Source: an uncultured Muribaculaceae bacterium
GTDB lineage: Bacteria > Bacillota_I > Bacilli_A > RF39 > UBA660
Length of the DNA stretch: 60,670 nt
NCBI GenBank assembly: GCA_964369355.1
Contig: CAYJEO010000001.1
Location: 31,090 to 91,759 of the forward strand
Reading direction: 5' to 3'
This document shows positions 8,101 to 60,144 of this stretch, one piece after another. Numbering within the stretch: position 1 is the first letter of the stretch; the number at the start of each line of letters is the position of its first letter. The notes under the pieces were generated by a model. The model searched no databases. It was not told the origin of the DNA and was given only the letters and a program-made list of their open reading frames with translations. A program made the position numbers and the translations under genes.

Positions 8101-10371
8101 AGCTGTATATTTATTAACAGTATCTATTAATAATTGTTTATTAATTGGTTTTGGGATATATTCATCAAATCCTTCTGTTAGGTAATATTCTCTACTTCCA
8201 TCAATTGCATTTGCAGTTACTGCTACTACAGGTGTAGTAAAATTTTGCATTTGTTTTAATTCTTTTAATGTTTCAACTCCTGATAATTCTGGCATCATAT
8301 CATCCATTAAAATTAAATCATATTTTTGTCCATTTTGAATATTAGTTAAACATTCTTTACCACTTAATACTTCAACCATATCAATTTCTAAATCTTTTAA
8401 TAATTTAGTTGCTATTTTTAAGTTCACTTTATTATCATCTACAATCAATACTTTTTTATGTTTTGTGTCTATTACGTTCATGATATTTATTGTATTTTCT
8501 AAATCAACTATTTCTAAAGTATCTCTTAATTTTTTTGGTGTTAAGAATCTATAAAATACTTTTAATAATTCTTCTTTATCTATTGGTTTTGCTAAATAGT
8601 CATCGAATCCTTTTTCAATATACATCTCTTTCATACCAGATATGGCGTTTGCTGTTAGTGCTACTACTGGGATATTGAAATTATTAATTTCTTTTAAGTG
8701 TTTTAATGTGTCTTGTCCACTTAATATAGGCATCATATCATCTAATAAAATTAAATCATAATTAAATCCTAGTTTTATTTTATCTATGCATTCTAAACCT
8801 GACTCAATCATTTCTGTTTCTATATTATATTTTTTAATTAATTTATCTGCCACTTTTAAGTTTAATTTATTGTCATCTACTAATAATACTTTCATACCTG
8901 AAAAGTCTACATTATGTGATAACTCTTGCATATCTTTTTCTTCAGCACCGGCATGAAGTTTTACTATTTTTTGTTGTAAGTAAATACTAAATTTAGTACC
9001 TTCTCCATAATTAGATGATACTACTATTTTACCACCTAACATTTCAACTAAAGATTTAGTAATTGCAAGACCTAATCCAGTACCTTCTATTGTTGTGTTT
9101 TTATCTTCATCTAATCTATTAAACTTAGTAAATAATGTTTGTATTTTTTCAGTTCTGATTCCTCTTCCTGTATCTTCTATAGTGATAACTAATGATGAAT
9201 CATCACCTTCATTTATACAAGTCACTGCAAATATGATATAACCTGCTTCAGTATATTTAACTGCATTGGTTAAAACATTTGTTATTATTTGTTTTATTTT
9301 TCCAATATCACCATACATTGTTGCCGGTAAATCTTCTGAAAAATGTGTTTTTAATTGAATTGGTTTTTCTCCAATTCTTGGAACTACTAATTTAGCTATA
9401 TTATTTAATTGCGACATTAAATTATAGTTTTGATTAACTATTTCCATTTTATCAGCTTCAATTTTTGATATATCTAATATACCATTTACTATTTCAAGTA
9501 AGTTTTGTGAAGCCATTATAATATCATCAGCATCTTTTTTTGTATCTTCTATATCATGTTCTGCTTTGATACATTCGGAAAAACCTATTATTGCATTTAA
9601 AGGTGTTCTTATTTCATGTGACATACTGGATAAGAAATCTGTTTTTGCTCTATTTGCCTTTTCAGCATATTCTTTTGCTTGTTCTATTTGTTCAATCATT
9701 TTAACATCTGGATTTTCGATAGTGAAAAACATAATGTAAACAAGAAAAATTGGTATTAAATCTACTAACATCAATTCTGGTACAAAATATGATATTAATA
9801 AAATAGGAATTAGAAATAATAAAATATAATATATTGTTTTAAATCTGTTATCCAATCTTTTTTTATTTATAAAAGCAAATATGAATATAGCAACCGCTAT
9901 TGCGCCAATACAAGCATAGCTAAAGTTAACTAACATTCCCTCAGATTGTGTAACTCCTAAATTTTGAGTAAATTCAATATCTAAAAATAAATTAATAATG
10001 AAAAATATCGGAACAGTAATAAGATAAGTTAATGCAATATTTTTTTTATTAAGTTTGTCTTTTTTTATCAAATATAAATTATATAAAAATAGTGAAATAA
10101 TTGTTATATATAACAATGTTACAATTCCAATATTTAAAAATTTCATAATATAATAAAATTCTTCATTTACCAATTCAATATGAAAAAAAGCTGATATTGT
10201 TAGAGCAACTGAATTGAAAACAGTAAATATTGTAGTCGCTATAAGCATTATTTCAAAAAATGTGTTTTCAAAAACTTTTAATTTTGGCTTTGGAAAATAA
10301 AAAACACAAAGCATAAACATAAAAATAAAGCTAAGTATTGGTATTTTAAATCCTAAATTTAGTAGTTCCAT
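8092..10371 (-). CDS. Hybrid sensor histidine kinase with polytopic membrane sensor and two C-terminal receiver domains
   Basis: About 6-7 TM helices. H-box [12 protein letters not shown]1 DTGRGI, G2 GTGLGLAI. Two REC domains follow (VLLVDDNK...ILLDDMMP...ALTANA, about 8548-8895, and VLIVDDNK...ILMDDMMP...AVTANA, about 8107-8460). Confidence 0.9.
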
Positions 10372-10427
10372 AGTATCACCTTAAACAATTATATCACTCT
10401 TTAAATCATTCTGTCTATCTCTTTAAA

Positions 10428-10451
10428 CAAAAAAAGACTTTTAAAAGTCTT
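10428..10451 (-). terminator. Rho-independent terminator after the acyltransferase gene
   Basis: Perfect palindrome AAGACTTTT/AAAAGTCTT (10434-10451) followed by 7 U on the minus strand. Confidence 0.6.
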
Positions 10452-11661
10452 ATCTCGTTTTCATTTGATTATCTATTTCGTATACTACTTCTTCTGTATT
10501 TTGATATACACTCGACAAAAAATCTTCAATAATATATTTTATTGTATCATCAATATTGAAATCATTTGTTTTGTTAATAATATAATTTTTTAATTCTTTA
10601 TCAGTTGATAACAACATAGTTGCCATAATAAAATCAATAACTTCATTTTTAGTTTTAAATATTTTTCGCAATCTTCTCGCTAACAAATCAATTTTGCTAT
10701 TTCTAGTATCAGGTATCGTAAACCCTATTTTTCTTTCACAAAATTTTCTAAAATCATACAAATCTCTATATTTTATTTCATAATATAGTGGAGAGTACTT
10801 TTGTATTTCTTTGTTTTTGTAAATAGATTTTGTATCTTCAATAAAATCTTCATTAGTATATCTATCAAAGTCTTTATATCCGTGTAAATTTTCGCGCCAT
10901 CCTAAAATGGTATCGTCTTTTGCATATTGTTTAAAGCGTTCTTCGTAATAATTATTTATGTCATTATATCCTCTTTGAGTTTGATCTAATGGTTTAATAT
11001 AGTTTGAAATAATATGCATCATAGATGTTGAAATCTCCTCACTTAATTTTTCTTTAAACTCCTTTTGTGACATTTCATACCCTTTTATTGGATTTCCATA
11101 CATAAGATAAGCTTTATGTTCTTGAGCATCAAATACATTAATCGTTGGTATAACTTCGACTTTTTTACTATTACTAAGTATATATGGCGAGTTGAAAAAA
11201 CCTTCATGAAATTTATTTGGTGAATCACAATATATTCCTTCAACAAATATTTGAACATTGGCGTGTTCTAATACTTTTTCACAGTGTTTTATACATTCTG
11301 AACGACTGATTTTATCAAACATATCAACTCTAATTATTCCATTTAATACAGTCGCTGGCATTAATGGATTATATTTAATTTGATCTGTTCCACCCATCAA
11401 TAAGTATGTGTGTGAAGGAATGTGACAAGTATTTATTATTATGTCATCTTCATAACTATGATTGCTTGCAAAAACATATTTTTTTCCTTTTTCCATTGTT
11501 GGTTTATTTAATACTTCTGTCTTATAATTTAGTATAGCTAGTTTAAAAACATTTCTTAAAATTGGATTGATTGCATTTCTCCATCCTATGGATTTTTCAT
11601 CAAACGGATCGATAGTGTTATCCAAAATTCCTTGACGTAAATTTTTAGTTAAATTATTCAT
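10450..11661 (-). CDS. PlsC-like lysophospholipid acyltransferase family protein with long C-terminal extension
   Basis: HX4D motif NHSYEDD and an EG-type block FVEGIY in the first ~200 aa. About 200 further aa show no motif I recognise. Start set at MNNLTK (AAGGGAGAG RBS); the track start 11682 is a TTG inside the RBS region. Confidence 0.55.
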   Translation of the reverse strand: MNNLTKNLRQGILDNTIDPFDEKSIGWRNAINPILRNVFKLAILNYKTEVLNKPTMEKGKKYVFASNHSYEDDIIINTCHIPSHTYLLMGGTDQIKYNPLMPATVLNGIIRVDMFDKISRSECIKHCEKVLEHANVQIFVEGIYCDSPNKFHEGFFNSPYILSNSKKVEVIPTINVFDAQEHKAYLMYGNPIKGYEMSQKEFKEKLSEEISTSMMHIISNYIKPLDQTQRGYNDINNYYEERFKQYAKDDTILGWRENLHGYKDFDRYTNEDFIEDTKSIYKNKEIQKYSPLYYEIKYRDLYDFRKFCERKIGFTIPDTRNSKIDLLARRLRKIFKTKNEVIDFIMATMLLSTDKELKNYIINKTNDFNIDDTIKYIIEDFLSSVYQNTEEVVYEIDNQMKTR

Positions 11662-11763
11662 AAATTCTCTCCCTTTTTTCAACTATTATATATTTTTTCA
11701 TTTATTTGTCAAATTTTTAGTTTCTTATATATTGATTGTATTATAAAATTAAAATTTTTTCAA

Positions 11764-11800
11764 TAAAAAAACATTATCAACTAAGATAATGTCTTTTTTT
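11764..11800. terminator. Hairpin terminator downstream of serS
   Basis: ACATTATC-aactaa-GATAATGT (11771-11792) flanked by A- and T-runs. Confidence 0.55.
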
Positions 11801-13085
11801 ATTTTTTAGGTTCTATTTTTTCTAAACCACCCATGTAAGGTCTTAATGCAGTAGGAATATTTACACTTCCATCTTCATTATAATTGTTTTCTAAGAAAGC
11901 AATTAATCCTCTTGGTGTTGCTAATACTGTATTATTTAAAGTATGCGCATATTGAGTACCTTCATTAGTTTTCATTCTAATACCTAATCTTCTTGATTGT
12001 GCTTCTCCTAAAGTTGAACAAGATCCAACTTCAAAGTATTTTTGTTGTCTTGGAGACCAAGCTTCAACATCACAAGATTTAACTTTTAAATCTGCTAAAT
12101 CTCCTGAGCAACATTCTAATGTTCTAACAGGTACATCTAATGATTTAAAGAAATCAACTGTAAGTTGCCACATTTTGTTATACCAATCCATAGATTCTTC
12201 TGGTTTACAAATAACTATCATTTCTTGTTTTTCAAATTGATGAACTCTATAAAGTCCTCTTTCTTCTAAACCATGAGCCCCAACTTCTTTTCTAAAACAT
12301 GGTGAATAAGAAGTTAATGTTATAGGTAATTCTGATTCTTTTACTTTTTGATCTTTGAATTTACCTATCATTGAGTGTTCTGAAGTTCCGATTAAATATA
12401 AATCTTCTCCTTCAATTTTATACATCATTGCATCCATTTCTGCAAATGACATAACACCTGTAACAACATCTGATCTAATCATAAATGGCGGAATACAGTA
12501 ATCAAATCCTGCATCTATCATAAAGTCTTTAGCATAAGCTATCATTGCTGAATGTAATCTTGCAATATTTCCCATTAAGTAGTAAAAACCATGACCACTT
12601 GTTCTTGCAGAAGATTCTTTATCAATTCCCATAAATCTATCACAAATATCTGCATGATATGGAATTTCATAACTAGGAACTACTGGCTCTCCATATTTTT
12701 GTACTTCTACATTTTCGTTATCATCTTTACCAATAGGTACTGAGTCATCCATAATATTTGGAATAACCATCATTTTTTCTTTAATTGATTTTTCTAATTC
12801 TACTTCTTTTTCTTCTAATTCAGTTATTTTTGTAGTATATGTCGCTATTTCTTCTTTTAAAGCATTAGCTTCTTCTACTTTTTTCTCTCTCATTAAAGTT
12901 CCAATTAAAGCACTTTTTTCATTTTTTGAAGCTCTTAAGTTATCTCCTTGTTGTTTGTATTCACGATATTCTTTATCTAAAGTAAATATTTCATCTACTA
13001 AAGGTAATTTATTATCTTGAAATTTTTTCTTGATGTTTTCTTTTACTAAATCTTTGTTTTCTCTTATTAATTTAATGTCTATCAT
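11799..13085 (-). CDS. serS: Serine--tRNA ligase
   Basis: N-terminal coiled-coil arm and class II core (FRKEVGAHG, YRVHQFEK, GSCS...RR). 428 aa. Preceded by a Ser T-box. Confidence 0.95.
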   Translation of the reverse strand: MIDIKLIRENKDLVKENIKKKFQDNKLPLVDEIFTLDKEYREYKQQGDNLRASKNEKSALIGTLMREKKVEEANALKEEIATYTTKITELEEKEVELEKSIKEKMMVIPNIMDDSVPIGKDDNENVEVQKYGEPVVPSYEIPYHADICDRFMGIDKESSARTSGHGFYYLMGNIARLHSAMIAYAKDFMIDAGFDYCIPPFMIRSDVVTGVMSFAEMDAMMYKIEGEDLYLIGTSEHSMIGKFKDQKVKESELPITLTSYSPCFRKEVGAHGLEERGLYRVHQFEKQEMIVICKPEESMDWYNKMWQLTVDFFKSLDVPVRTLECCSGDLADLKVKSCDVEAWSPRQQKYFEVGSCSTLGEAQSRRLGIRMKTNEGTQYAHTLNNTVLATPRGLIAFLENNYNEDGSVNIPTALRPYMGGLEKIEPKK

Positions 13086-13107
13086 AATTTCCTCTTTCTA
13101 TTTAAAA

Positions 13108-13312
13108 CAAATTATAAAAAAAGACTAATTATAGGAGCATAAAAAATGCGGTACCATCCTAATTAGTCTTAATTTGAATAACGGCTATGCCGGAAATGTT
13201 TACATTTCACTCAAGAGTAGATTCATAAAATAATTTTGTTTCGTTTACATCAACCACGAACTTTCTTTGCAAAATTAATTTTATTACTATTCTCCGTCTT
13301 TGTTTTAAAAAT
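13108..13312 (-). promoter_or_regulatory. T-box leader (Ser, specifier UCU) controlling serS
   Basis: On the minus strand: stem I with AGAAAG / GGTTGATGTAAAC elements. Specifier loop GAA-UCU-A (codon = plus-strand 13219-13221). T-box sequence AATTAGGATGGTACCGCA (plus-strand 13148-13165). Terminator AAGACTAATTAGG...CCTATAATTAGTCTT plus U7. Confidence 0.88.
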
Positions 13313-15934: not shown

Positions 15935-15990
15935 ATTCTCACCATTTTCTTAATTTATTATATCAAGTTTCATATTTTTAGTAAATAAGT

Positions 15991-16019
15991 TTGACATTAT
16001 ACACTATAAAACTTATAAT
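15991..16019 (+). promoter_or_regulatory. Perfect consensus sigma-A promoter upstream of the glycine-rich protein gene
   Basis: TTGACA (15991-15996), exactly 17 nt, TATAAT (16014-16019). The ATG lies 55 nt downstream. Confidence 0.65.
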
Positions 16020-16073
16020 TATATATAGAATAAGAATAGATAAATATATATATAAAGAAATGAGTGAGTTTAA

Positions 16074-18509
16074 ATGAATAAAAAAGGGTTTGCATTATCG
16101 AGTATGATTTATACTTTGTTGGTTATATGTTTAGCTTTAATGTTAGGTATTTTAGCTTCTTTAGCATCTCAAAAATTTCAATTTGATAAAATCGGAGAAA
16201 TCATACATGAAAATTTAAATAGTATAATTAAAACAGAAGAAGGTTCTGAATTTGTTTTCGACTATACTGGAGATTATCAAACTTTTGTTGCACCGACTGA
16301 TGGATATTATAACTTTGAAGCTTGGGGAGCACAAGGCGGTAATGATATAGATACTAAAAATGGTGGATATGGGTCATATACATCTGGAGACATCTATCTA
16401 ACAGAAGGTGAAATTATATATGTCTATGTAGGTGGACAAGGTTCTTTATCAGCTGTTGCTGGTGATGAAAATTCAAAAGGATATAATGGTGGCGGAGCTG
16501 GTGGCTACATGAATCCAGCTGATCATGTAGCTGAAGCTGGAGGAGCCGGTGGCGGTGGCGGTGCTACTGATTTCAGATTAAATGATAGTACTAATTCAAT
16601 AATAATGATTGCCGGTGGTGGTGGCGGTCAAAGTAATTACTACACTCAAAAACCTGGTGGTTCAGCAGGAGGACTAATTGGGTATGCGGGTGTTGAAGAT
16701 AGAAATTCTGGAAGTGCAGCATTTACAAATGCACAAGGAGCTACTCAAACTACTGGTGGACAAGCTGCGATAGGTAGTTCATCCTATACTCAACCGACTT
16801 CTGGTATATTTTCCCAAGGAGGTTCTTCACTAGATAAGTGGGGTGGCGGTGGCGGTGGTGGCTACTACGGTGGTGGTGCTAGTAGTGCCACGTCTGGAGT
16901 AGTAGGATCTGGTGCTGGTGGTTCATCTTATATTTCGGGTCATACTGGTTCAGTTGCAATTACTTCTGAATCTGATACAACTCCAACTACTACCGATTTA
17001 GACTTTTCAATTAGATATATTGAAATTGGATCTTCAGGTAGTAATTCTAATACTAACAATCATATTGTAGAACTACAAGCATTTACTGCAGACGGTACTA
17101 ATGTTGCAAGTGGAAAAAGTGTTACTTCTAATAAAACTCAAAATTCATCTTACCCATTTTCTCGAGTAACTGATGGCAATACAACATCAGCTTACTTTGC
17201 AGATGTGGGTTCTATCACTACTGTAGATTTAGGTGCTGAATACAATTTGGAAAGTGTTAAATTATGGAGATATTACACGGATTCAAGAACATACTACAAT
17301 ACTTATGTAAAAGTTTATAATGAAGATTTTTCAAGAAGTACATATTTGCATATTTCAACTCTTGATGGAACCTATGCAGAAACTTCTGCTGGAAAAACAT
17401 TATCTACTAAAATTTGTGAAACAGGTACTTTAAATAATAATTGTTCAATTCATTATAGTGATAAATATTTCACTAATACAGTTATGATTGATGGTTCTGG
17501 TTATAATTGGACAAATAAAAAAGAAGGAATCATTAATATGCCAACTATTGATAATGGTACTTATGAGACTAATATAGGACATTCTGGTAATGGTAGTGCT
17601 AAAATAACATATTTAGGAACTACTCTTGATGAAGAAACCATAGAAACAGGACAAGTATTTGATTTTGCTCATATAAGTGACTATCAAACTTTCATTGTTC
17701 CAGAAAGTGGAAATTATAAATTTGAAGCTTGGGGAGCTTCTTCAACAAATCAAGGTAATACATACATTTTAAGTAATAAAACATATGCAGGATATACTAG
17801 TGGAAATATACATTTGGAAAAAGATCAAATTATTTATGTATATGTTGGTGGCATGGGCGAAAAGTTCAATACTTCCACAACTGTCACTGGTCTTTCTAAA
17901 AGTGGTGGTGCAACTGATTTTAGATTAATTCAGGGTGAATGGAATGAAAAATATTCTTTAAATTCTAGAATAATGGTTGCCGGTGGTTCTGGTGGAACAT
18001 ATGCTGATGGCTCTGGTGGTGTTGGCGGAGATGCTGGCGGTTTAACAAGTCAAGGTGCTTTAATCTCTTATACTACTGCTGGTGCTAGTCAAACATTTGG
18101 TGGAAGTGCTGGATTAAACAGTTATGCAGGCGGATTTGGATATGGTGGTTACAGTGCTGTTTCTGCATATAATTCTGGTGCTGGTGGCTATTACGGTGGT
18201 GGGTCATCTCCTTCTGGAGGTGGTGGTTCTTCATTTATTTCAGGTCATACTGGAGCTGTTGCTATTACTTCTGTATCCAATAGTTCTCCCAAAACTGGAT
18301 GCACCACAGGAACAACAACCAATGAATGTTCAAAACATTATAGTACTCTAACTTTTACTAATACTGTTATGATTGATGGTTCAGGTTATAACTGGACTAA
18401 TGTAAGAGGTTCTTTAACTCCGATGCCTAACCCTAATGGCGGTAGTTATTCGAATGGTTTAGGACATTCTGGTGCTGGACATGCAAGAATTACATATTTA
18501 GGAAACTAA
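16074..18509 (+). CDS. Secreted/anchored protein with prepilin-like leader, two ALK/LTK-type glycine-rich modules and a nested discoidin (F5/8 type C)-like domain
   Basis: Leader MNKKGF|ALSSMIYTLLVICLALML. Modules at aa 58-515 and 527-810 share ordered motifs (YQTF..P..G.Y.FEAWGA, GGATDFRL, IMxAGGxGG, YYGGG, ISGHTGxVAITS, FTNTVMIDGSGYNWTN, GHSGxGxAxITYLG). aa ~307-447 carry IVELQAFT...VTDGNT...VDLG...VKLWRYY, which looks discoidin-like. Confidence 0.6.
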   Translation: MNKKGFALSSMIYTLLVICLALMLGILASLASQKFQFDKIGEIIHENLNSIIKTEEGSEFVFDYTGDYQTFVAPTDGYYNFEAWGAQGGNDIDTKNGGYGSYTSGDIYLTEGEIIYVYVGGQGSLSAVAGDENSKGYNGGGAGGYMNPADHVAEAGGAGGGGGATDFRLNDSTNSIIMIAGGGGGQSNYYTQKPGGSAGGLIGYAGVEDRNSGSAAFTNAQGATQTTGGQAAIGSSSYTQPTSGIFSQGGSSLDKWGGGGGGGYYGGGASSATSGVVGSGAGGSSYISGHTGSVAITSESDTTPTTTDLDFSIRYIEIGSSGSNSNTNNHIVELQAFTADGTNVASGKSVTSNKTQNSSYPFSRVTDGNTTSAYFADVGSITTVDLGAEYNLESVKLWRYYTDSRTYYNTYVKVYNEDFSRSTYLHISTLDGTYAETSAGKTLSTKICETGTLNNNCSIHYSDKYFTNTVMIDGSGYNWTNKKEGIINMPTIDNGTYETNIGHSGNGSAKITYLGTTLDEETIETGQVFDFAHISDYQTFIVPESGNYKFEAWGASSTNQGNTYILSNKTYAGYTSGNIHLEKDQIIYVYVGGMGEKFNTSTTVTGLSKSGGATDFRLIQGEWNEKYSLNSRIMVAGGSGGTYADGSGGVGGDAGGLTSQGALISYTTAGASQTFGGSAGLNSYAGGFGYGGYSAVSAYNSGAGGYYGGGSSPSGGGGSSFISGHTGAVAITSVSNSSPKTGCTTGTTTNECSKHYSTLTFTNTVMIDGSGYNWTNVRGSLTPMPNPNGGSYSNGLGHSGAGHARITYLGN

Positions 18510-18542
18510 AAAAACATATGAATATTCATATGTTCTTTTTTT
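18508..18542. terminator. Bidirectional terminator between the glycine-rich gene and polC
   Basis: 22-nt perfect palindrome AACATATGAAT/ATTCATATGTT (18513-18534) flanked by an A-run and a T-run. Confidence 0.7.
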
Positions 18543-18543
18543 A

Positions 18544-29671: not shown

Positions 29672-29698
29672 AAAAAATAGACTTTTATAGTCTATTTT
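29670..29698. terminator. Bidirectional terminator between the PBP gene and the 445-aa gene
   Basis: ATAGACT-tttat-AGTCTAT hairpin (29677-29695) flanked by A- and T-runs. Confidence 0.6.
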
Positions 29699-31029
29699 CC
29701 ATATGTATATTTATAAGTTGGTTCTAAATAATAGTTTTGCGAATTATAAATTTCTTCTAACGTCATTCCTAATTTGGCTTCTAGTTCAGTACCTAATATA
29801 GGTTCTTCTAAAATAGGAAATGATAAAATATAATATTGAATTCTATATCTTGAATAAACATCTACTACTTCTGTTCTATAAGATGAATTGCTTGCATCTA
29901 ATGAAGAATAATCTCTAAATGAAGTATAATCTGTATGACGTGTAAGTTCTACATCTTTATTAGGATAGTTTGATGGTGTTGTTGACGTATATGAACTATA
30001 GTTTCTTCTAGTACCATTGTACCAACGCCATTGCGTATCCTGATAAGAATACATTTTAACACTTTCTTTACTTTTTTCTGTATACTGGTCATCTGGTTGA
30101 TCTACTAAGTATTCTCCATTGTTATAATATACTTTATCTCCATCTTTATTTTCATAATACCATTGGTATCCTGTATCTGATTTAATAGAACGGTAATCTT
30201 TTTCCTCTGGATAATTAATTGACCACTCTGTATATTCTAATTTTATAGCTGTATTAGTATCTTTATTAGCATATCCTGCAGGTTGTTCTGAAGATAGATG
30301 CGAGTATTGCCCACCATTATCTTTATAAAATTTCCATTGTTGATCACTATATGAATAATAATTTTTTGTATCTTGTTCAATATTAGCTATTACTGCTTGT
30401 TCTGGAACATTTGGCAAGTCATCTTCGTCTAATGGTAAATAGTTATCATATTCTGATAATGTTTTGCTTACTTCACTTGATTCAAAATAATTTGTATAAC
30501 TAGTATTGTAAGTTTCTTTGTCATAATAATTATAGTAAGTAGTTACATCAACTAAATCTCTATTTGGTAATTTAGAAGTTTCACCACTCATTTTATATTT
30601 ATCTTCTGTTGTACATTCTCCGCAATTTGTTAAATTAAATGTTCTTATGTAGTCATCTTCTATTTTAGTTACTTTAACTTCTCCTGAGCAAGTTAAATCA
30701 TCGCACATAAATTCTGATGATTTAATATAACCTTCATCTATTAAGGTGTCAATTTCAACTATCACTGAAGTACCAGGTACTATTGGTAAAGTATTAGTAT
30801 CTTCTAAGTATAAATATGCTTTTTCTTTTGCTAAATCTTCTAAAGGAGCACATTTATTAGGTCCTAATGAAGATATAATAATAATTATTATCATTAATAC
30901 TATTAAAACTATCCCTGCTATAATAATTTTATTTTTATTCGTTTCATAAAAACTTTGTTTTGGAGCATCTGTTTCTACTACCATATAGCTTTTGTCTTCA
31001 TAAATTTTTTCTTTTTTTAAAAATTTCAT
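29692..31029 (-). CDS. Single-pass membrane protein with Cys-containing EGYI module and Tyr/Trp-rich repeats
   Basis: 445 aa. TM at aa 36-55. VEIDTLIDEGYIKSS...C..C motif resembling the pseudopilin at 53292. Two ~33-aa repeats YSY(S/Q)D.QW(K/R)(F/W)Y...YS...P..Y.NKD (nt 30259-30357 and 29953-30051). Confidence 0.45.
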   Translation of the reverse strand: MKFLKKEKIYEDKSYMVVETDAPKQSFYETNKNKIIIAGIVLIVLMIIIIIISSLGPNKCAPLEDLAKEKAYLYLEDTNTLPIVPGTSVIVEIDTLIDEGYIKSSEFMCDDLTCSGEVKVTKIEDDYIRTFNLTNCGECTTEDKYKMSGETSKLPNRDLVDVTTYYNYYDKETYNTSYTNYFESSEVSKTLSEYDNYLPLDEDDLPNVPEQAVIANIEQDTKNYYSYSDQQWKFYKDNGGQYSHLSSEQPAGYANKDTNTAIKLEYTEWSINYPEEKDYRSIKSDTGYQWYYENKDGDKVYYNNGEYLVDQPDDQYTEKSKESVKMYSYQDTQWRWYNGTRRNYSSYTSTTPSNYPNKDVELTRHTDYTSFRDYSSLDASNSSYRTEVVDVYSRYRIQYYILSFPILEEPILGTELEAKLGMTLEEIYNSQNYYLEPTYKYTYGK

Positions 31030-34488: not shown

Positions 34489-34761
34489 TTATTTTTTCAA
34501 TTTTTTTTCAACAAAACTACTTAATGTAAATCCAATAGCAATAAATATTAAAGAATAATAATGTATTATTGCATTGTTGATTTTATTTATTTCTATAAAA
34601 TAAATAATTGATGATAACAATATTATTGAAAAACTAGATAATATTTTAATAATTTTATTTTTATTATATATTAATTTATAATTAACCGATAAAAATAAGG
34701 AAAATATAATTCCAAATATAAAAGAAAATATAATTAATTCAATTTGTGTCCTTAAAATCAT
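34489..34761 (-). CDS. yabQ: Spore cortex biosynthesis protein YabQ
   Basis: 90-aa polytopic membrane protein overlapping yabP by 4 nt. Position and size match yabQ. Confidence 0.65.
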   Translation of the reverse strand: MILRTQIELIIFSFIFGIIFSLFLSVNYKLIYNKNKIIKILSSFSIILLSSIIYFIEINKINNAIIHYYSLIFIAIGFTLSSFVEKKLKK

Positions 34762-35039
34762 TTGAATAATTTAGAAATAAAACTATCTTCCTTTTTCTTT
34801 TTATTACTATCTAAATAAGTTAAACTGTTCAATATTCCTTTTATTGCAACATTTCCAGAATTTGTATCTAGTTTAATTATTTCCAATTCATTTCCTTTTA
34901 TATGCATAAATCCCATATTTGTTTCTAATAAAAATTCTTCTTCATCAAAGTTTTCTATTTTTTTTACTCCACTTAAGTTTATAGTTTTTCTTTCATTAAT
35001 TGATATAGAATGTTTAGATATATTAAATTTTTCTTCCAT
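34758..35039 (-). CDS. yabP: Sporulation protein YabP
   Basis: HSISINERKTINLSGVKKIENFDEEEFLLETNMGFMHIKGNELEIIKLD fits the YabP family pattern. Confidence 0.8.
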   Translation of the reverse strand: MEEKFNISKHSISINERKTINLSGVKKIENFDEEEFLLETNMGFMHIKGNELEIIKLDTNSGNVAIKGILNSLTYLDSNKKKKEDSFISKLFK

Positions 35040-35103
35040 TCGATCACCTAATCAATTATATGATTTTTAATTTTTTATATGAAAAAAAGAGTTTTATAAA
35101 CTC

Positions 35104-35361
35104 TTATTCAGCATTTTTATAAGCTTCTAAAATTGCTTCTTCAAACATCTTTCTTCCTTCTGGATTGATCGGGTGAGCTATATCTCTATATCCTCCTGTT
35201 GCTGTTTTTCTGCTAGGCATAGCGATAAATAAACCGTTGTCTCCTTCGATGATTCTAATATCATGAATAGCTAGGCATTCATCAATTAAAACTGATGCTA
35301 ATCCTTTCATTCTAGAATCTTCTTTTTCAACTTTACGTACATTTACTGATGTTATTTTCAT
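35104..35361 (-). CDS. spoVG: Septation protein SpoVG
   Basis: MKITSVNVRKVE...GLASVLIDECLAIHDIRIIEGDNGLFIAMPSRK...YRDIAHPIN. The track start (35379) is a TTG within the GGGAGA RBS, so ATG 35361 is used. Confidence 0.9.
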   Translation of the reverse strand: MKITSVNVRKVEKEDSRMKGLASVLIDECLAIHDIRIIEGDNGLFIAMPSRKTATGGYRDIAHPINPEGRKMFEEAILEAYKNAE

Positions 35362-35460
35362 ATAACCATCTCCCTTCAAGAATTTTACTACAATTAAAGT
35401 ATATACCTTTTTGTTAACTTTTGCAAGTTTTTGTCGTATTTAAAAAAAACTACTTGTTAT

Positions 35461-36177
35461 TTAAGTAGTTTTTGTCTCTAATGCTGCAAAATATTTTATC
35501 ATTTCGAATTTCATTTCTTCATTGATTTCTATCTTATATAATTTTTTAATTGTTGCTTTTCGGTCATATTTTATTTTAATACAATATTGAATAATAGATT
35601 TTTTTATATTTTTTTTATATAAACTATAATTATTTAACAATATTGCTGCTAATTTATGTTTATCTCCATTAAAGTGATTTAAATTAAACATTATATTTTT
35701 GTAATTATATTTTATTTTTAATTTATTTAAAGTATCTAATACTTCTACAACTTTATTATGATCATTTTGTCTAGTGACTGCTAAAAAGGCGTTATCAATA
35801 CAATTTATATTATCTGTATTTAAACAATTAATTAAATAATCATATGTTTTTTTTGATTTGAATTTTACCTTAGCTAATAAGAAAGTAAAGTATATTTTTT
35901 TATTAGGTTTTTGTTTATCATAATAAACTGCTAATTTATCAAATATAAATTCATAATCATTTATATTTATTGTTACTTCATTTCTTTCATAAATGTCATC
36001 AAATATTAAAATATTTTCTATATTTTTTAATCGATTATATATTTTGTTTTCAACATTTTTTTGTTTGTTATCTAGTTTTATTATAAGTTTTAAAAGTTTT
36101 CTTTCTCTATTTTTATCCAGATTATAAATTTTAAAACAAATAATAACTAATAATATTATTATAAGTGCTATTTCCAT
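35461..36177 (-). CDS. Hypothetical Lys/Asn-rich membrane-anchored protein
   Basis: 238-aa ORF with an N-terminal TM helix and no motif I recognise. Sits between veg and spoVG. Confidence 0.4.
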   Translation of the reverse strand: MEIALIIILLVIICFKIYNLDKNRERKLLKLIIKLDNKQKNVENKIYNRLKNIENILIFDDIYERNEVTININDYEFIFDKLAVYYDKQKPNKKIYFTFLLAKVKFKSKKTYDYLINCLNTDNINCIDNAFLAVTRQNDHNKVVEVLDTLNKLKIKYNYKNIMFNLNHFNGDKHKLAAILLNNYSLYKKNIKKSIIQYCIKIKYDRKATIKKLYKIEINEEMKFEMIKYFAALETKTT

Positions 36178-36271
36178 GTTTTCATCCTGTTCTATTATCT
36201 ACTGCAGAAATACAATTATAATATATTTTTACTATTATAGTCAATTGATTTTAATAAGTTTACATATATTT

Positions 36272-36493
36272 TTACACATCTATTTTGATTATTTTTGTTA
36301 TAACATCTGAATACTTAAATGATTTTATTTCCGGATATATTTCTCTATTTAATTTAACTAAAAATATATAGTCATAAGTCTCTTCAATCGTTGCTTTATA
36401 TGTTTCATATTTGTTTCTTCCTAAACTATATTTTATAGAAATTTGTTTTCCTTTTATATTTTCAATTTCATTTTTCACTTTTTCTATTGTCAT
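36272..36493 (-). CDS. veg: Veg protein (biofilm formation stimulator)
   Basis: 73 aa. IKGKQISIKYSLGRNKYETYKATIEETYDYIFLVKL...FKYSDVIT parallels B. subtilis Veg. Lies directly after yabG as in B. subtilis. Confidence 0.75.
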   Translation of the reverse strand: MTIEKVKNEIENIKGKQISIKYSLGRNKYETYKATIEETYDYIFLVKLNREIYPEIKSFKYSDVITKIIKIDV

Positions 36494-37266
36494 CTAGGAT
36501 ACCCCACATACATTGTTCCTTTTGTAATTATTCCACCTATTCCAGCAGAGCCATATTTTGTTATTTCTAATATACCTTTTAAATCTATATCTGAAGTTGA
36601 CTCTGTTAAACTTAATCGTGATGCAACTATAGCGGGATCTAACGCGTGAATGTTTACTCTTTTTGGACTAGAAGCAAAGTTTGCTCCCGCTTTTAATAAT
36701 TCTTCATAGTCAGATTGGCATGCCCCTGCTATTATTATTAGTTTTTGGTGGCTACTTTCATACTTTCTTGCTTCGATAACTGAATTAACAAAATGAATAC
36801 TGTTTTTGTAAGCTGTTATATCATTTAATTCGCCCTTACTTTTATAATATGCATCATGCCCTGTTATTACTAATATCGTTGGATTCACTTCATTTAATAA
36901 AGTTTCTAAATTATTTGCTATCTCATTTTCTTTTAACACTTTACCTACTGCCCATATATTATTATTTTCATAATATTTTAAACACTTATTTAAATAATCA
37001 CTGTCACCGTCTATATGCAATATTTTACCAGGTAAGTAAAAGTAATCATCTCTATTAAATTCTTTTGCTAGTCCAATTCTTTCTTCAAATTCTTTATCTT
37101 CAATATCTTCTTTTACCAGTTGTAAATCTAATATAGGACTATCTGCTAATAATCTAATACTCATTCCTTTTAAATATACTGTTTCGTCTTCTATATTAGT
37201 AATTATAAAAACTAAATCATTGTCATATGATTTTCTTGTAACTAAATCTCCTATTTTAAAATTCAT
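36490..37266 (-). CDS. yabG: Sporulation-specific peptidase YabG
   Basis: MNFKIGDLVTRKSYDNDLVFII matches the YabG N-terminus. LHIDGD...ILVITGHDAY...IIAGACQS core. Start moved to 37266 (GGTGATAAT ATG). Confidence 0.8.
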   Translation of the reverse strand: MNFKIGDLVTRKSYDNDLVFIITNIEDETVYLKGMSIRLLADSPILDLQLVKEDIEDKEFEERIGLAKEFNRDDYFYLPGKILHIDGDSDYLNKCLKYYENNNIWAVGKVLKENEIANNLETLLNEVNPTILVITGHDAYYKSKGELNDITAYKNSIHFVNSVIEARKYESSHQKLIIIAGACQSDYEELLKAGANFASSPKRVNIHALDPAIVASRLSLTESTSDIDLKGILEITKYGSAGIGGIITKGTMYVGYPR

Positions 37267-37330
37267 ATTATCACCCATCTAATTGTATGATGGATATTTT
37301 TATATATGAAAAAAAGTAGAATTTCTTCTA

Positions 37331-42058: not shown

Positions 42059-42811
42059 TTAATCTACTGGTATTGATAAAATTGATGAATTTTCGTTTAT
42101 TCCGTTTGCATAATATTCTGGTACACTACCATTTATTAACTTAATAGATATCGGTATTTTGGAATCAATAGTTATTTTTTCTGTTAGAAATGGCATTATA
42201 ACTTGTACTGATGTTTCTACTTCTATAAATACTTCTAATAAAGCATTGTTAATTCCATATTCTTTTATTTCTGTTTTTATATTACTGATAACATTTCCTA
42301 CTAAGTTTAATCTTACTGGTATTTTAGGTCCTAAATTTGATAATAAAGAGTTATTTAAAGGTAATAATGAAGGTATATAAAAAATAACCCCATTGTTTTC
42401 ATTTTTATATTCTAAATTAGGGTCATTTTGATAACTATTTAAATTTAAAACACCATTTTCTAATTCTATTAAATTTTCGTATATATTAGTTGTAACTGAT
42501 GTTAATAACTTATTTACTATTATTGGATTAAAATCTATTGTATTTATTTCTTCATTTATATTTTTATTTATTAAAAATAAATTTTCTATATCTATTTGAT
42601 CTGTTATTTCTTTATTTATAGATAAATTTACTATTTGTGATGTTATTTTTATTATTTCTTGACTAGCATAATTATTTAAAGTTGGCATTATTTTATCATT
42701 TATGTATAAAAATGATGAATATATCCCTATAAAAACTAGGATAATTAAAATAATTATTTTATCTTTGTTAGTAATTTTTATTTTTTTATATTTCTTTATT
42801 TTTTTTCTCAT
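42059..42811 (-). CDS. yunB: Sporulation protein YunB
   Basis: N-terminal TM helix. LGPKIPVRLNLVGNV...EYGINNALLEVFIEVE...VPEYY corresponds to the conserved YunB C-terminal region. Confidence 0.7.
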   Translation of the reverse strand: MRKKIKKYKKIKITNKDKIIILIILVFIGIYSSFLYINDKIMPTLNNYASQEIIKITSQIVNLSINKEITDQIDIENLFLINKNINEEINTIDFNPIIVNKLLTSVTTNIYENLIELENGVLNLNSYQNDPNLEYKNENNGVIFYIPSLLPLNNSLLSNLGPKIPVRLNLVGNVISNIKTEIKEYGINNALLEVFIEVETSVQVIMPFLTEKITIDSKIPISIKLINGSVPEYYANGINENSSILSIPVD

Positions 42812-45936: not shown

Positions 45937-45960
45937 AAAAAAGAATATTTTCATATTCTT
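45937..45960 (-). terminator. Terminator copy A (24-nt repeat) after the pilin-like gene
   Basis: AAAAAAGAATATTTTCATATTCTT. Minus-strand hairpin AAGAATAT-gaaa-ATATTCTT followed by 7 U (the repeat covers 6; plus-strand 45936 adds one). Identical 24 nt at 47338-47361. Confidence 0.7.
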
Positions 45961-47284
45961 ATTTAACTACTACATATGGATCGTTGTATAAACCTGTTCC
46001 TGTCAATGTTACATCTGCTTTTAAGGATATAACAGGTCTTACATAATATGACTTCCATGTGTATGTGGCCCAAATTTGTTCATTTGAAGTTGTTGCTAGA
46101 CCGTAAGAAGATCCCCAACCTATTCCTTGTGTTGTTATTGTCCAATTCCAAAGTCCATTATATAAATAATTACTGCTAATAAACGGCCAGCTATCACCTT
46201 CTTGCCTGTGATAACTACCAGACAAAACTGCTTCATGAAAGTCATATGTACCAACTGGATAAGTTAATAATCCATTTCCATACTCAGATTCTTCTACTGT
46301 ATAACTTGATTCTTTATTACATTCAAGATTATAACCTTTTGAATATATTTCATAAAATTTTTGGTGATCATTAGTAGAATAGGTCCATCCTTGATTAAGT
46401 GATGTTCCTGAGGTTTGCCCACTGTCCGAGCAAAACACTGAGTCTGCTATATACTCTTGACTATCAATTATATTTGTAGCATACCAATTATCTAACACTA
46501 TTTTTAAGTTTGAAGATGTTATAGTACCATCAACATTTTCATAAGCATATTTAAGAATGTTTGAATTTGTAGAATTGGGATTGTAACTATGAGTACCTAT
46601 TGTTGTATCAACTCCTATTTTCCCTGTTTGTTCTGCTTCTGTTGGTGGTGTAGTTCCTGCATATATTATGCGTATTGTTCCATCACCATTTATTCTTATA
46701 ATATTCCAATAATAATCATCAAATTTTAACCAATTATCATTAACTGCACCTCGATAGTAATAAGATTCACCTAAACTATCTGTAGTAACATGAATACCTG
46801 TATCTATCTCTACTACAGAGGGTGCTGTTATTTTGTTTTTTGCGTTTATTACATCCATTCCCTCGCTTGACAATATGTATTCGGCAGTATTAAAATTCGG
46901 TACACATTCTTCTTGTGTTTTAATTGTATTATCTTCATTTATTTCTTTATCTTCAAAGTTTTTTGTATAGCAAACATTATCCAAATACACTGCTATATAT
47001 ATTTGCCCATTGTCTTTTATTTTTAAAATCCCATTATCTGGTTTTTCTGATGTTGTTTTTATTTCACTATATAAATTAGTTTCACCATCAAAAGTAATTC
47101 CTTCTAAATGCGATGTTGCATAATATGTTTCAGCTCCATCTAGTATAAATTTTACTTCTGATAAGTTTGCAGACTTTTGTGCATCATCTATTATACCTAA
47201 AATAATAGGTGTTGCTATTGCCATTATTATCACTAATATTACTAATACAGCTAGTAACTCAATTAATGTGAATCCCTTTTTCAT
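45959..47284 (-). CDS. Type IV pilin-like protein (prepilin N-terminal cleavage/methylation domain) with large C-terminal domain
   Basis: MKKG|FTLIELLAVLVILVIIMAIA class III leader. Downstream YYYRGAVNDNWLKFDDYYWNIIRINGDGTIRIIYAG, LDNWY, YVRPVISLK. AGGAGAG RBS. Confidence 0.85.
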   Translation of the reverse strand: MKKGFTLIELLAVLVILVIIMAIATPIILGIIDDAQKSANLSEVKFILDGAETYYATSHLEGITFDGETNLYSEIKTTSEKPDNGILKIKDNGQIYIAVYLDNVCYTKNFEDKEINEDNTIKTQEECVPNFNTAEYILSSEGMDVINAKNKITAPSVVEIDTGIHVTTDSLGESYYYRGAVNDNWLKFDDYYWNIIRINGDGTIRIIYAGTTPPTEAEQTGKIGVDTTIGTHSYNPNSTNSNILKYAYENVDGTITSSNLKIVLDNWYATNIIDSQEYIADSVFCSDSGQTSGTSLNQGWTYSTNDHQKFYEIYSKGYNLECNKESSYTVEESEYGNGLLTYPVGTYDFHEAVLSGSYHRQEGDSWPFISSNYLYNGLWNWTITTQGIGWGSSYGLATTSNEQIWATYTWKSYYVRPVISLKADVTLTGTGLYNDPYVVVK

Positions 47285-53265: not shown

Positions 53266-53293
53266 AAAAAAAAACATACAATTGTATGTTTTT
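53266..53293 (-). terminator. Terminator between the pseudopilin gene and ligA
   Basis: 18-nt perfect palindrome AACATACAA/TTGTATGTT (53273-53290) followed by 9 U on the minus strand. Confidence 0.65.
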
Positions 53294-53648
53294 AATTACA
53301 TTCTTCCATATATGTAAATTCATATTGATTAGACGATGTTTGAAATGAAACTTCTACACAACCATTCATTACTTCATTGTTAACTGGATTTTTTAAATCT
53401 TCATTTTTAATGTATCCTTCTTCTTTTAAAGTTTGAATTTCCACTTGAATTGTGTTTTCGCTATATAAATATATATTTTCATTTAAGTAAGTTTGTGCTG
53501 CTTGTTCTATTTTTGTTATTTGTTCTTCTAAAGTATTTTCTCTTGCATTTTTTAATATTGAATTAACTGCAACAAATGTAATAGTTGCTAACAATGCAAT
53601 TATTACTAATACTGCTAATAATTCAATTAAAGTAAAGGCTTTTTTCAT
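53292..53648 (-). CDS. ComGC-like pseudopilin (prepilin N-terminal cleavage/methylation domain)
   Basis: MKKA|FTLIELLAVLVIIALLATI leader. 118 aa, small globular domain with VEIQTLKEEGYIKNEDL. Confidence 0.85.
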   Translation of the reverse strand: MKKAFTLIELLAVLVIIALLATITFVAVNSILKNARENTLEEQITKIEQAAQTYLNENIYLYSENTIQVEIQTLKEEGYIKNEDLKNPVNNEVMNGCVEVSFQTSSNQYEFTYMEECN

Positions 53649-58370: not shown

Positions 58371-58398
58371 AAAAAAACAATATAAATTAATATATTGT
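58371..58398 (-). terminator. Terminator after the 585-aa secreted protein gene
   Basis: ACAATATA-aattaa-TATATTGT hairpin followed by 7 U on the minus strand. Confidence 0.55.
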
Positions 58399-60144
58399 TA
58401 TTGTATATCTAGATGAGTGGTTAGGATCTGCTATTCCACTATAAGTTGTATATGAGAATATACCGTTTATATAAGTTGCATTTGACCATAAAGAACCACC
58501 TCTATAAAACCAACTATTTACTAAATATTCAGATGTAACTCCTCTATCTTGATAAAAACCTAAAGTGTCCGTTAAAGCATCTCCTTTAATTGATGGGGTT
58601 GTAGTTACTCCATAATTACCATATGGATATATATTTATATATCTTCCTTCTGGCAAAGTTGTAAATCCTGATTTATCAAAATTAACTGTTCCATTTGACC
58701 TTAAAACAGTTCCCATAACTCTATCGAAAGTTCCACCTACTGTATCATATACACCATATATATTTCCAGTAGTTGATGCTCCCATACCATAATATGTATC
58801 ATAAGTATTTACTGTACAAGTAGCAGTTGTACTGCCTGCATGAGGATAATCTCCTCCTATACCTGTTGTATAATTAATACAATTATTAGGATAAATTTCT
58901 TTATTAACTCCTGTATAATCTGTATTTCCGTATTTTCCAAATTTAGATTGAGATAAATACGCCATTGATCCCCATTCTGTATTTTTAATTAAATGAGCAT
59001 CTACGTAACCTATATAACCATAGTTATAATATCCATTCATTCCATTCATTAAGCTTTGAACGTAATTAAATGTTTGAGCAATAGAATAATTAACCATAGG
59101 TGTCATACTAGGTTTTGAATATAATAAATTCCCTACTTTTGAAGCTTCAAATTTTGCTATCCAAAATCCGGGTATTTCTATATTACCTACATCACTCCTT
59201 GATGTGTCACAAGTATTGCCCCAACAAAATGCCGGTGATGTGTAATAGTTTGTTGGATATGCACTATCATATGTTGCACTACCAGTATCTAACATATCCG
59301 TACCGCCAAATTTAATATCAAAGGCTCCAGGAGTTGTTATGCTTAACTCAGAGCCTCCATAACCTAGATATCCTAAAGGTTCTCTTATTGTATATGAATA
59401 TCTTGGAATCCATACCATCATTGAAGTCATATGTTCCATTTCAACAATTGTACCTGGTTCTGATGCTACATATCTAGCTCGCTCTGATTCAATAACTGAT
59501 GTAGCATTTGCCCACTTTAAAATATCATAATCAAACCACTGTTGATTTAAAACGTCTGCTTTTACCCATTCATTTATTGTATTATCATAAACAATTGGGA
59601 TTAATCCATCAATTAAAACTGGGTCTGCACCATCTAAAGTCGGATCTTTATATATTCCACCTTTAGTAAATATATATTCTAATTCTAAAACAAAATTGGT
59701 ATTTGTCAAAGTTTTTTCTGTATTAAAATATATTTGGAAAGTAGTTTCTGAGTTAGGTGCAAATTCTGAATATATATATACACCTACTAAAAAGTAGTCG
59801 CCAACACCACTATAAATTAATTCATTAACTTCACTTAAATGATAATAATCACTTGTATCATTTTTAATAGTTACTTCGTAAAAAAATCTTGATGTCGTAT
59901 TTTGAACTGTTACGCCAATATTTGTTGTGCTATCTGTAAATGTAGGAGAAAAAGTTTCTGTTGCATTAGTTATAGATTCTAAGTGTATATCAGATATATA
60001 TATTCCACCTACTTCACCAATTACCGCTTCACCGCTAATTGCTAATTCTGTATTTAATGCAGAATACCCTATTGATATTACAGAAATAGATAAGAAAATT
60101 ATTAATAATCCTAAAACTTTAATACTAATAAAATTACGTATCAT
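58387..60144 (-). CDS. Secreted/anchored protein of the family commonly fused to pilin leaders in Bacillota, with FGE/SUMF1-like signature blocks
   Basis: N-terminal signal anchor LGLLIIFLSISVISIGYSALNTELAISGEA. Blocks WFDYDILKWANA, MVWIPRYSYTI, GFWIAKFEAS, NTEWGSMAYLSQSKFG, GNIYGVYDTVGGTFDRVMG, FYRGGS. GGAAGGAG RBS. Confidence 0.5.
   Translation of the reverse strand: MIRNFISIKVLGLLIIFLSISVISIGYSALNTELAISGEAVIGEVGGIYISDIHLESITNATETFSPTFTDSTTNIGVTVQNTTSRFFYEVTIKNDTSDYYHLSEVNELIYSGVGDYFLVGVYIYSEFAPNSETTFQIYFNTEKTLTNTNFVLELEYIFTKGGIYKDPTLDGADPVLIDGLIPIVYDNTINEWVKADVLNQQWFDYDILKWANATSVIESERARYVASEPGTIVEMEHMTSMMVWIPRYSYTIREPLGYLGYGGSELSITTPGAFDIKFGGTDMLDTGSATYDSAYPTNYYTSPAFCWGNTCDTSRSDVGNIEIPGFWIAKFEASKVGNLLYSKPSMTPMVNYSIAQTFNYVQSLMNGMNGYYNYGYIGYVDAHLIKNTEWGSMAYLSQSKFGKYGNTDYTGVNKEIYPNNCINYTTGIGGDYPHAGSTTATCTVNTYDTYYGMGASTTGNIYGVYDTVGGTFDRVMGTVLRSNGTVNFDKSGFTTLPEGRYINIYPYGNYGVTTTPSIKGDALTDTLGFYQDRGVTSEYLVNSWFYRGGSLWSNATYINGIFSYTTYSGIADPNHSSRYTITIY

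Follow-up and report, generated by a model that had tools for sequence, protein, structure and literature searches.

Modular pilins, in which the pilin-type helix bears an adhesive payload, are well established, and their modules are probably exposed at the tip of the filament (PMC8179133). In the Streptococcus sanguinis representatives, PilB with a vWA module and PilC with a lectin module (Raynaud 2021; Shahin 2023), the class III signal is canonical and includes Glu5, a folded head precedes the payload and the genes belong to pil operons. The subunit that caps type IV filaments, known as the K-type subunit (GspK, PilK or ComGG), is the one that lacks Glu5, which is explained by the fact that no subunit sits above it, so that no charge neutralisation is needed; nonetheless ComC, the prepilin peptidase, cleaves ComGG, which caps the tip complex (PMC10790768). 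GspK, PilK/PilX and ComGG all keep the Gly at position -1, are small or alpha-domain pilins and are encoded last in operons of the H-I-J-K type. In phages, a TNF-like domain combined with a glycine-rich lattice ends a long helix or fibre, as in gp24 of cyanophage Pam3 and gp38 of Salmonella phage S16, both of which are trimeric virion parts that need chaperones; the TNF-like, Gly-rich tip of the Pam3 fibre recognises the host and resembles ALK of C. elegans (PMC9608196). Here we describe a gene from a 60,670-nucleotide stretch of contig CAYJEO010000001.1 of an uncultured bacterium (hereinafter, the window) that encodes a protein of 811 amino acids (aa) in which two glycine-rich domains (GRDs) of the ALK/LTK type, one of them with a putative lectin-like domain inserted, directly follow an N-terminal helix that resembles those of prepilins and lacks Glu5.

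The 811-aa protein consists largely of two GRDs that are related by internal duplication (Table 1). The Pfam family PF12810 (ALK_LTK_GRD) matches it with a score of 224 bits, against a cut-off of 24.5, and an expectation value (E) of 3.9e-66, in three stretches that extend over both copies, the best of them being aa 75-325. In BLASTP comparisons, aa ~55-306 align with aa ~524-741 (42% identity, E=4e-48) and aa ~427-515 align with aa ~722-810 (53% identity, E=1e-26), and it follows from this pattern that the first domain, GRD1, is split by an insert of ~120 aa. The motifs that an initial annotation, made from the sequence alone, had listed as shared between the two halves are indeed found in both copies, including the Cys pair before HYS, and several are invariant across close homologues; the coordinates and translation of the open reading frame (ORF), the duplication and the assignment to the ALK/LTK GRD family given in that annotation are likewise upheld. 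The second domain, GRD2, shows 54-59% identity to the single GRDs of homologous proteins.

The structural comparison leads to the same family. An AlphaFold2 (AF2) model of the protein, built on 56 homologues, has a mean predicted local distance difference test score (pLDDT) of 83.4, and both GRDs are for the most part above 90. Searching the PDB with Foldseek, we found that the top 21 matches were all ALK/LTK GRD/TG structures (E from 6e-7 to 2e-5, probability 1.0) and that the best match outside this group had an E-value of only 0.08, so that ALK/LTK GRDs were the only significant matches. The TM-scores are modest (0.25-0.41), and the bacterial protein is therefore a distant relative of the animal GRD. 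The sequence-only search of the PDB with the full 811-aa protein yielded a weak CBM32 match only and did not find ALK, which indicates that the link to the animal domain comes to light solely with profiles or structure; a scan of the protein against NCBIfam produced no match. The high-confidence Gly-rich stretches of the model are assigned no regular secondary structure by DSSP and would be compatible with polyglycine-II helices. A Pfam SH3_2 match to aa 568-592 (E=4e-4) that falls below the cut-off was dismissed as a chance match of 25 residues.

The extracellular TG domain of ALK and LTK (7nx1, 7mzy, 7lrz and 7lir) presents the Gly-run motifs in the same order, also on a TNF-like sandwich. 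By contrast with the animal receptors, the protein described here is bacterial, contains two tandem copies of the domain, is only 15-23% identical to them, lacks the EGF-like, transmembrane-kinase and ALKAL-ligand elements and holds a CBM32-like domain inserted in GRD1. Among viral predicted structures, Foldseek detected 55 matches at E<=1e-3, many of them proteins of tailed phages and giant viruses whose annotation does not go beyond 'glycine-rich domain-containing'. Unlike the phage fibre tips, which also combine a TNF-like fold with a Gly-rich lattice, the present protein is the product of a chromosomal gene located between polA and polC and starts with a membrane or pilin-type N-terminus.

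The ~120-aa insert in GRD1 recurs in many homologues, either in the same position or in the form of separate tandem copies. When 19 homologous segments were collected, 17 matched PF22633 (best E-value 4e-8) and nine matched PF00754; the insert of the 811-aa protein itself scores 18.3 bits against PF22633, under the cut-off of 27.8. The profile made from the alignment of these 19 segments matches the CBM32 domain of AlyQ (7d29, E=5e-7), in two pieces that appear in swapped order, and the CBM32 domain of CpGH89 (4a3z, E=1e-4), as well as CBM32 domains of the fucolectin and chitosanase types. The swapped order of the AlyQ pieces suggests a circularly permuted discoidin fold adapted to insertion into a loop of the GRD. 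In a separate AF2 model, the insert reaches a pLDDT of 87.7 and a predicted TM-score (pTM) of 0.85, but Foldseek returned nothing for this good model at E<0.26, with galactanase 6eon as the best partial match (TM-score 0.48), a failure that is possibly due to the circular permutation. Hence the lectin-like nature that had initially been ascribed to this region finds its support in the profiles and not in the fold search, and we consider the insert to be, probably, a permuted CBM32/discoidin-like domain.

The N-terminus of the protein reads MNKKGFALSSMIYTLLVICLALML. Its start, MNKKG|FALSSMIYTLLVICLALMLGIL, fits the layout of a class III signal, that is, a short basic leader that ends in Gly, followed by a hydrophobic helix; if F6 is taken as position +1, Ser occupies position +5, and the Gly-Phe junction, the hydrophobic helix and the Ser at +5 are thus present as originally noted. 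In the AF2 model, aa 5-51 form a single helix of ~47 residues (pLDDT ~67-93).

Examination of the top 120 homologues reveals several classes of N-termini attached to GRDs. Class (a), with ~26 members (24 recognised by motif plus P0102 and P0114, which were read by eye and have NGFFLSE), comprises canonical prepilin leaders of the form KGFTLIELL, several of which have a precomputed PF07963 match. Class (b), with ~24 members (22 matched the motif, and P0013 and P0084 were added by eye), is the Glu5-less form seen in the 811-aa protein, whereas class (c) comprises SipW/camelysin-type signals (PF12389) and classes (d) and (e) are signals or anchors of other types. Comparison of class (b) across 14 diverse sequences, which are only 21-43% identical to the N-terminus of the 811-aa protein, shows that Gly-1 is invariant and Lys-2 nearly so, that Phe is usual at +1, that S, T, A or G occurs at +4/+5 and an aromatic residue at +8, and that a K-x-x-L-D-K-I-K motif follows the hydrophobic stretch; the leader consists of 4-6 residues in most of these sequences and of up to 14 in one. 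Using hhalign, class (b) was aligned with the canonical leaders of the same family with a probability of 87.7% and E=3.4e-6, in register at G-1/F+1. A profile search with the class (b) N-terminus returned only short proteins or fragments and did not directly disclose any other type of payload.

Among the class (c) proteins, P0005, P0015 and P0024, as well as the product of the gene at positions 9110..11929 of locus L003, have SipW/camelysin-type N-termini with motifs such as TFSYLAP and SYAFF, so that, to judge by these motifs, the same GRD payload is joined to a second type of export signal. SipW-type signals are also used by proteins of the TasA/camelysin type and are linked to fibre assembly.

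The class (b) N-terminus is conserved and is associated with canonical prepilins and, in related genomes, with pilC-pilD gene pairs. Two other proteins encoded in the window are PF07963-positive prepilins, which implies that the genome encodes a prepilin peptidase. The smaller one (118 aa) is a candidate major or minor pilin, and there are no pil or com genes beside it. The larger one (441 aa) has a large C-terminal domain without a Pfam match; relatives of this domain are found in loci L060, L033 and L041, and relatives of the N-terminal part of the protein in L045 and L005. Homologues of a third protein of the window (585 aa) adjoin GRD genes in L015 (58% identity), L007, L045 and L073, and its N-terminal motif class is also present on the GRD proteins P0030, P0053 and P0090. 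In locus L036, a 231-aa class (b) gene overlaps the start of a gene for a GRD protein with a Glu5-containing prepilin leader, and in locus L082, class (b) and class (b)-like genes are part of a four-gene cluster that also includes an N_methyl protein. The 96-aa class (b) protein of this cluster, which was read on 23 contigs, contains a C-x-C motif that is conserved, and its charged tail has, by eye, the look of a coiled coil. The tandem array in L071, a striking expansion of large pilin-like proteins, is located on a 1.04-Mb contig of a Bacilli metagenome-assembled genome (MAG) from buffalo omasum. In L012, the T2SSF gene and then the A24 peptidase gene come directly after a GRD gene, and the pair is flanked by genes for GRD proteins or proteins with SipW-type signals; in L034, the corresponding pair lies ~5 kb from two GRD genes. 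Neither pair has an adjacent ATPase gene.

Table 1. Features of the window and of the related loci discussed in the text; positions in the window refer to its first nucleotide, and those in other loci follow the locus name.
Feature	Position	Strand	Basis or remarks
Predicted consensus sigma-70 promoter: TTGACA 15991-15996, 17-nt spacer, TATAAT 16014-16019	15991..16019	+	12/12 match
Purine-rich GAGTGAG, possible weak Shine-Dalgarno-like element, 5 nt 5' of ATG	16062..16068	+	read from the sequence
Complete ORF, 811 aa and stop codon	16074..18509	+	translation exactly as quoted in the initial annotation
Leader MNKKG, aa 1-5, basic, with Gly at its end; G5|F6 as putative site of the prepilin peptidase	16074..16088	+	class (b) conservation, in-register alignment
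N-terminal helix, aa 6-51, hydrophobic in aa 6-31 and followed by an amphipathic part; Ser at +5, no Glu5, no Pro22	16089..16226	+	AF2
GRD1, N-terminal part, aa ~55-306	16236..16991	+	Pfam, BLASTP against GRD2, pLDDT mostly >90
Insert, aa ~307-426, CBM32 / F5-F8 type C (discoidin)-like, apparently circularly permuted	16992..17351	+	profiles of homologous segments
GRD1, C-terminal part, aa ~427-515, which contains the Cys pair, HYS and FTNTVMIDGSGYNWTN	17352..17618	+	BLASTP against GRD2 C-terminus
GRD2, aa 523-811, uninterrupted	17640..18506	+	Pfam, BLASTP, AF2
Canonical prepilin, 441 aa, MKKGFTLIELLAVL	45959..47284	-	PF07963 27.2 bits; adjoins nrdD
Canonical prepilin, 118 aa, MKKAFTLIELLAVL	53292..53648	-	PF07963 25.7 bits, exceeding the cut-off; solitary, with ligA and pcrA on either side
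585-aa protein, N-terminus of type ...GYSALNTELAISGEA	58387..60144	-	no Pfam match
Sporulation genes YabP, YabQ (weak match), SpoVG, YabG, YunB	34489..37278 and 42059..42811	-	
Three ORFs of 410, 445 and 238 aa	10450..11682, 29692..31029, 35461..36177	-	no significant Pfam family
Four-gene cluster: 641-aa class (b)-like, 96-aa class (b), 115-aa lipoprotein, N_methyl+fn3 of at least 639 aa	L082 8060..10635; L083 2486..4402		
Ten tandem canonical prepilin-type genes, 405-760 aa each, four with GRDs	L071 835..15415		
Gene pairs of T2SSF (PilC-like) and prepilin peptidase (A24_N_bact + Peptidase_A24)	L012 11099..13277; L034 1190..3469		A24 peptidase of L012 at 12510-13274

The explanation that we favour, at about even odds, is that the 811-aa protein is a Glu5-less, pilin-derived carrier that presents a GRD/lectin adhesin at the tip of a filament or at the cell surface. 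If so, the N-terminal helix would insert into the membrane, and a prepilin peptidase whose gene lies outside the window would cut after Gly5; the protein might then take the tip position in a type IV filament, in the manner of GspK, PilK and ComGG, or stay anchored by its helix. In either case, the two rigid GRDs, with their TNF-like and polyglycine-II elements, and the CBM32-like lectin domain would be held away from the cell and, with the phage tail-fibre tips of the same fold as a model, may bind a glycan or a surface receptor. In lacking Glu5 and keeping Gly-1 the protein is like GspK, PilK/PilX and ComGG, but it has no sequence-family match to these K-type tip pilins and does not belong to an operon of their kind. 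Compared to the modular pilins, it possesses the extra modules, namely, the two GRDs and the CBM32-like domain, and lacks Glu5, an N_methyl match, the head domain and the operon; the IPR012902 motif was not detected in it, whereas close homologues have both this motif and the extra modules.

Several lines of evidence weigh against such a carrier. Apart from the lack of Glu5 and Pro22, aa 1-60 gave no match to PF07963 at E<=10 in the same scan in which a canonical homologue scored 32 bits, and the profiles of ComGG and PilX_N did not match the N-terminus even at E<=10. A pilin head domain is absent: GRD1 starts ~55 aa from the N-terminus, directly after the helix, and in 10 of 33 class (b) members, the 811-aa protein included, the distance from the Gly to the start of the GRD is 68-75 aa (we call these forms head-less), whereas in homologues with canonical leaders the first GRD is at least 136 aa away from the leader Gly, which leaves room for a pilin head. 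The gene is solitary, without minor pilin genes of the H, I or J type beside it, and the class (b) GRD genes P0014, P0055 and P0006 are likewise solitary among housekeeping genes, the clusters in L036 and L082 being partial exceptions; no genes for a prepilin peptidase, ATPase or platform protein are present within the 60-kb window. Furthermore, SipW-type or plain signals are found on many GRD homologues, from which it follows that the GRD payload does not need a pilus, and none of the bacterial GRDs has a known ligand. Finally, a signal-anchor, too, has a short basic n-region and then a hydrophobic helix. Thus, the prepilin leader proposed in the initial annotation is plausible, being favoured by the invariant Gly-1, the in-register alignment and the clustering with prepilin genes but failing the PF07963 test and lacking Glu5.

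The principal competing explanation, which we regard as possible although doubtful, is that the N-terminus is a plain signal-anchor. In that case the helix, which may derive from a pilin leader, would stay uncleaved as a type II membrane anchor and tether the GRD/lectin ectodomain to the cell surface with no involvement of a prepilin peptidase or filament. The absence of an N_methyl match, of Glu5 and of a pilin head, the location of the gene among housekeeping genes and the export of GRDs with other types of signals are all in keeping with this explanation, and so are the small class (b) proteins of 85-96 aa, which consist of a transmembrane (TM) helix and a charged region with, by eye, the look of a coiled coil and are thus not pilin-like. 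However, a simple anchor gives no reason why the Gly is invariant, the Lys nearly invariant and the leader short in sequences that have otherwise diverged. The alignment of class (b) in register with canonical prepilin leaders, the clustering of class (b) genes with canonical prepilin genes and the presence of bona fide prepilin leaders on the same payload family in about a fifth of the close homologues also argue against it.

Under a different scenario, the prepilin peptidase would process the class III signals of the many large pilin-leader proteins of these gut Bacilli, and these proteins would build a surface assembly other than a pilus, namely, a bindosome-like short pseudopilus or a layer that displays binding domains, instead of a long pilus with one adhesin at its tip. 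There is a precedent in the bindosome of Sulfolobus, with class III signals on sugar-binding proteins (PMC3047682). The lineage encodes many large prepilin-type proteins, with ten genes in tandem in L071, of which four have GRDs, and two in the window, and the pilC-pilD pairs are found without an adjacent ATPase gene, all of which is in keeping with such an assembly; nevertheless, the ATPase gene may lie elsewhere and the modular-pilin tip model already accounts for the same facts, so we view this scenario as improbable. Cleavage by signal peptidase I, for example, at ASLA|S (aa 31/32), with release of a soluble secreted GRD protein, is highly improbable: the n-h-c layout and the small residues A28-S29-L30-A31 are there, but the h-region is at least ~22 residues long and belongs to a single predicted helix that runs to aa 51, and the AXA-like motif is not conserved in class (b), several members of which have MLLMNFKNKK or GLLSMTDTRK in its place.

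Returning to the pilin-derived carrier, one can conceive, tentatively, that the N-terminus of the form K-G-F-[AV]-x-S-x-x-x-Y...K-x-x-L-D-K-I-K defines a new type of carrier, in which a bare alpha1 helix, cut by the peptidase, would cap a filament or a bindosome-like array and bear interchangeable GRD and lectin adhesins. A further speculative thought along these lines is that the adhesins, whose genes would have strong promoters and lie dispersed between housekeeping genes, could be the cellular counterpart of phage tail-fibre tips.

The GRD family is large. A word-indexed protein search retrieved 2,981 proteins at E<=1e-5, and an exhaustive search of 1.84 billion representatives retrieved 7,388 clusters at E<=1e-3, of which 652 reached E<=1e-30, so that the family amounts to ~7,400 clusters defined at 50% identity. 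An identical copy of the 811-aa protein occurs once in the protein collection (P0001). The largest GRD proteins reach 7,663 aa (P0153-P0221), and a single protein can contain up to 18 GRD stretches; accordingly, a protein with two GRDs is ordinary for this family. In a scan of GTDB with one genome per species, for which a five-sequence alignment of GRD2 served as the query, 417 stretches were confirmed. Nearly all of the best 80 of these 417 belong to MAGs of uncultured gut bacteria that bear the labels Bacilli, Tenericutes or Mycoplasmatota and were obtained from samples of human, mouse, rabbit and ruminant origin, often with several loci in a genome; Firmicutes CAG:582 and Coprobacillus CAG:605 are also among these 80. 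In the nearest locus (L003, from UMGS1661) the GRD gene likewise adjoins polC, and in L025 a GRD gene is near polA. Phages encode GRD proteins as well. True Patescibacteria also do so, and in one of their loci, L019, the GRD gene adjoins an ORF with the Walker motif of a GspE/PilB-type ATPase; the size and position of the two adjacent ORFs suggest that they are PilT- and PilC-like.

In a search of the literature, no paper that assigns a function to bacterial PF12810/GRD proteins was found, and a fungal genome paper states explicitly that PF12810 proteins have no known function. The fusion of a pilin leader with a GRD has been catalogued: Dataset S1 of Raynaud et al. 2021 (PMC8179133) includes an IPR012902-PF12810 architecture in two proteins, which are uncharacterised, and Datasets S1 and S2 also include a version with three PF12810 domains (one protein) and a PilY1 that carries PF12810. 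The initial view that the combination as a whole had not been described is therefore only partly tenable, given this catalogue and the commonness of tandem GRDs. What appears to be undescribed is the Glu5-less, head-less class of N-termini fused directly to GRDs, the insertion of a CBM32-like domain inside a GRD and the size that this family attains among uncultured gut Bacilli.

The ALK/LTK GRD is medically important in animals and has many prokaryotic and viral relatives without a known function. The locus described here and its relatives tie this domain to surface-display machinery, namely, type IV pilin leaders and SipW-type signals, and to a lectin module, in a setting of abundant uncultured gut Bacilli, which points to a role in adhesion or receptor recognition. 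The PF07963 profile misses the Glu5-less, head-less N-terminus, and surveys of modular pilins would accordingly undercount this class. If cleavage of the protein and its display at the tip of a filament were demonstrated, the rules for type IV filament subunits would be extended, and the carrier would have implications for the prokaryotic and viral ancestry of the ligand-binding domain of metazoan ALK/LTK.

The very strong promoter noticed in the initial annotation corresponds to the predicted sigma-70 consensus upstream of the gene, which is the sole 12/12 site within positions 15700-18800; the number of promoter-like sites around the gene is no greater than in shuffled sequence. The gene is flanked by polA, which is divergent, and polC, which is convergent at a distance of 34 nt, and serS is also among the flanking genes. 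A prophage or tail-fibre origin of the gene was rejected on account of these three flanking genes; no phage genes were seen near it in the Pfam matches or by eye, the PHROGs scan not having been applied to the genes of the window. The local GC content is 0.34, compared to ~0.25 for the window, and the GC skew is positive, both because of the Gly codons, since Gly accounts for 17.6% of the residues; horizontal transfer as the source of the elevated GC content was likewise rejected given that the Gly codons account for it.

The window as a whole (~25% GC) encodes PolA, PolC and SerS along with sporulation proteins, and so the source lineage appears to be a low-GC, spore-forming Firmicute. The nearest GRD-bearing relatives of this spore-gene-bearing lineage are MAGs labelled 'Tenericutes', 'Mycoplasmatota' or 'Bacilli'. 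The other ORFs of the window that were examined with Pfam or by eye belong to the housekeeping, sporulation or pilin-like categories or have no family match; among the last, the 445-aa protein has one TM helix and an ectodomain rich in Tyr, Asn and Asp.

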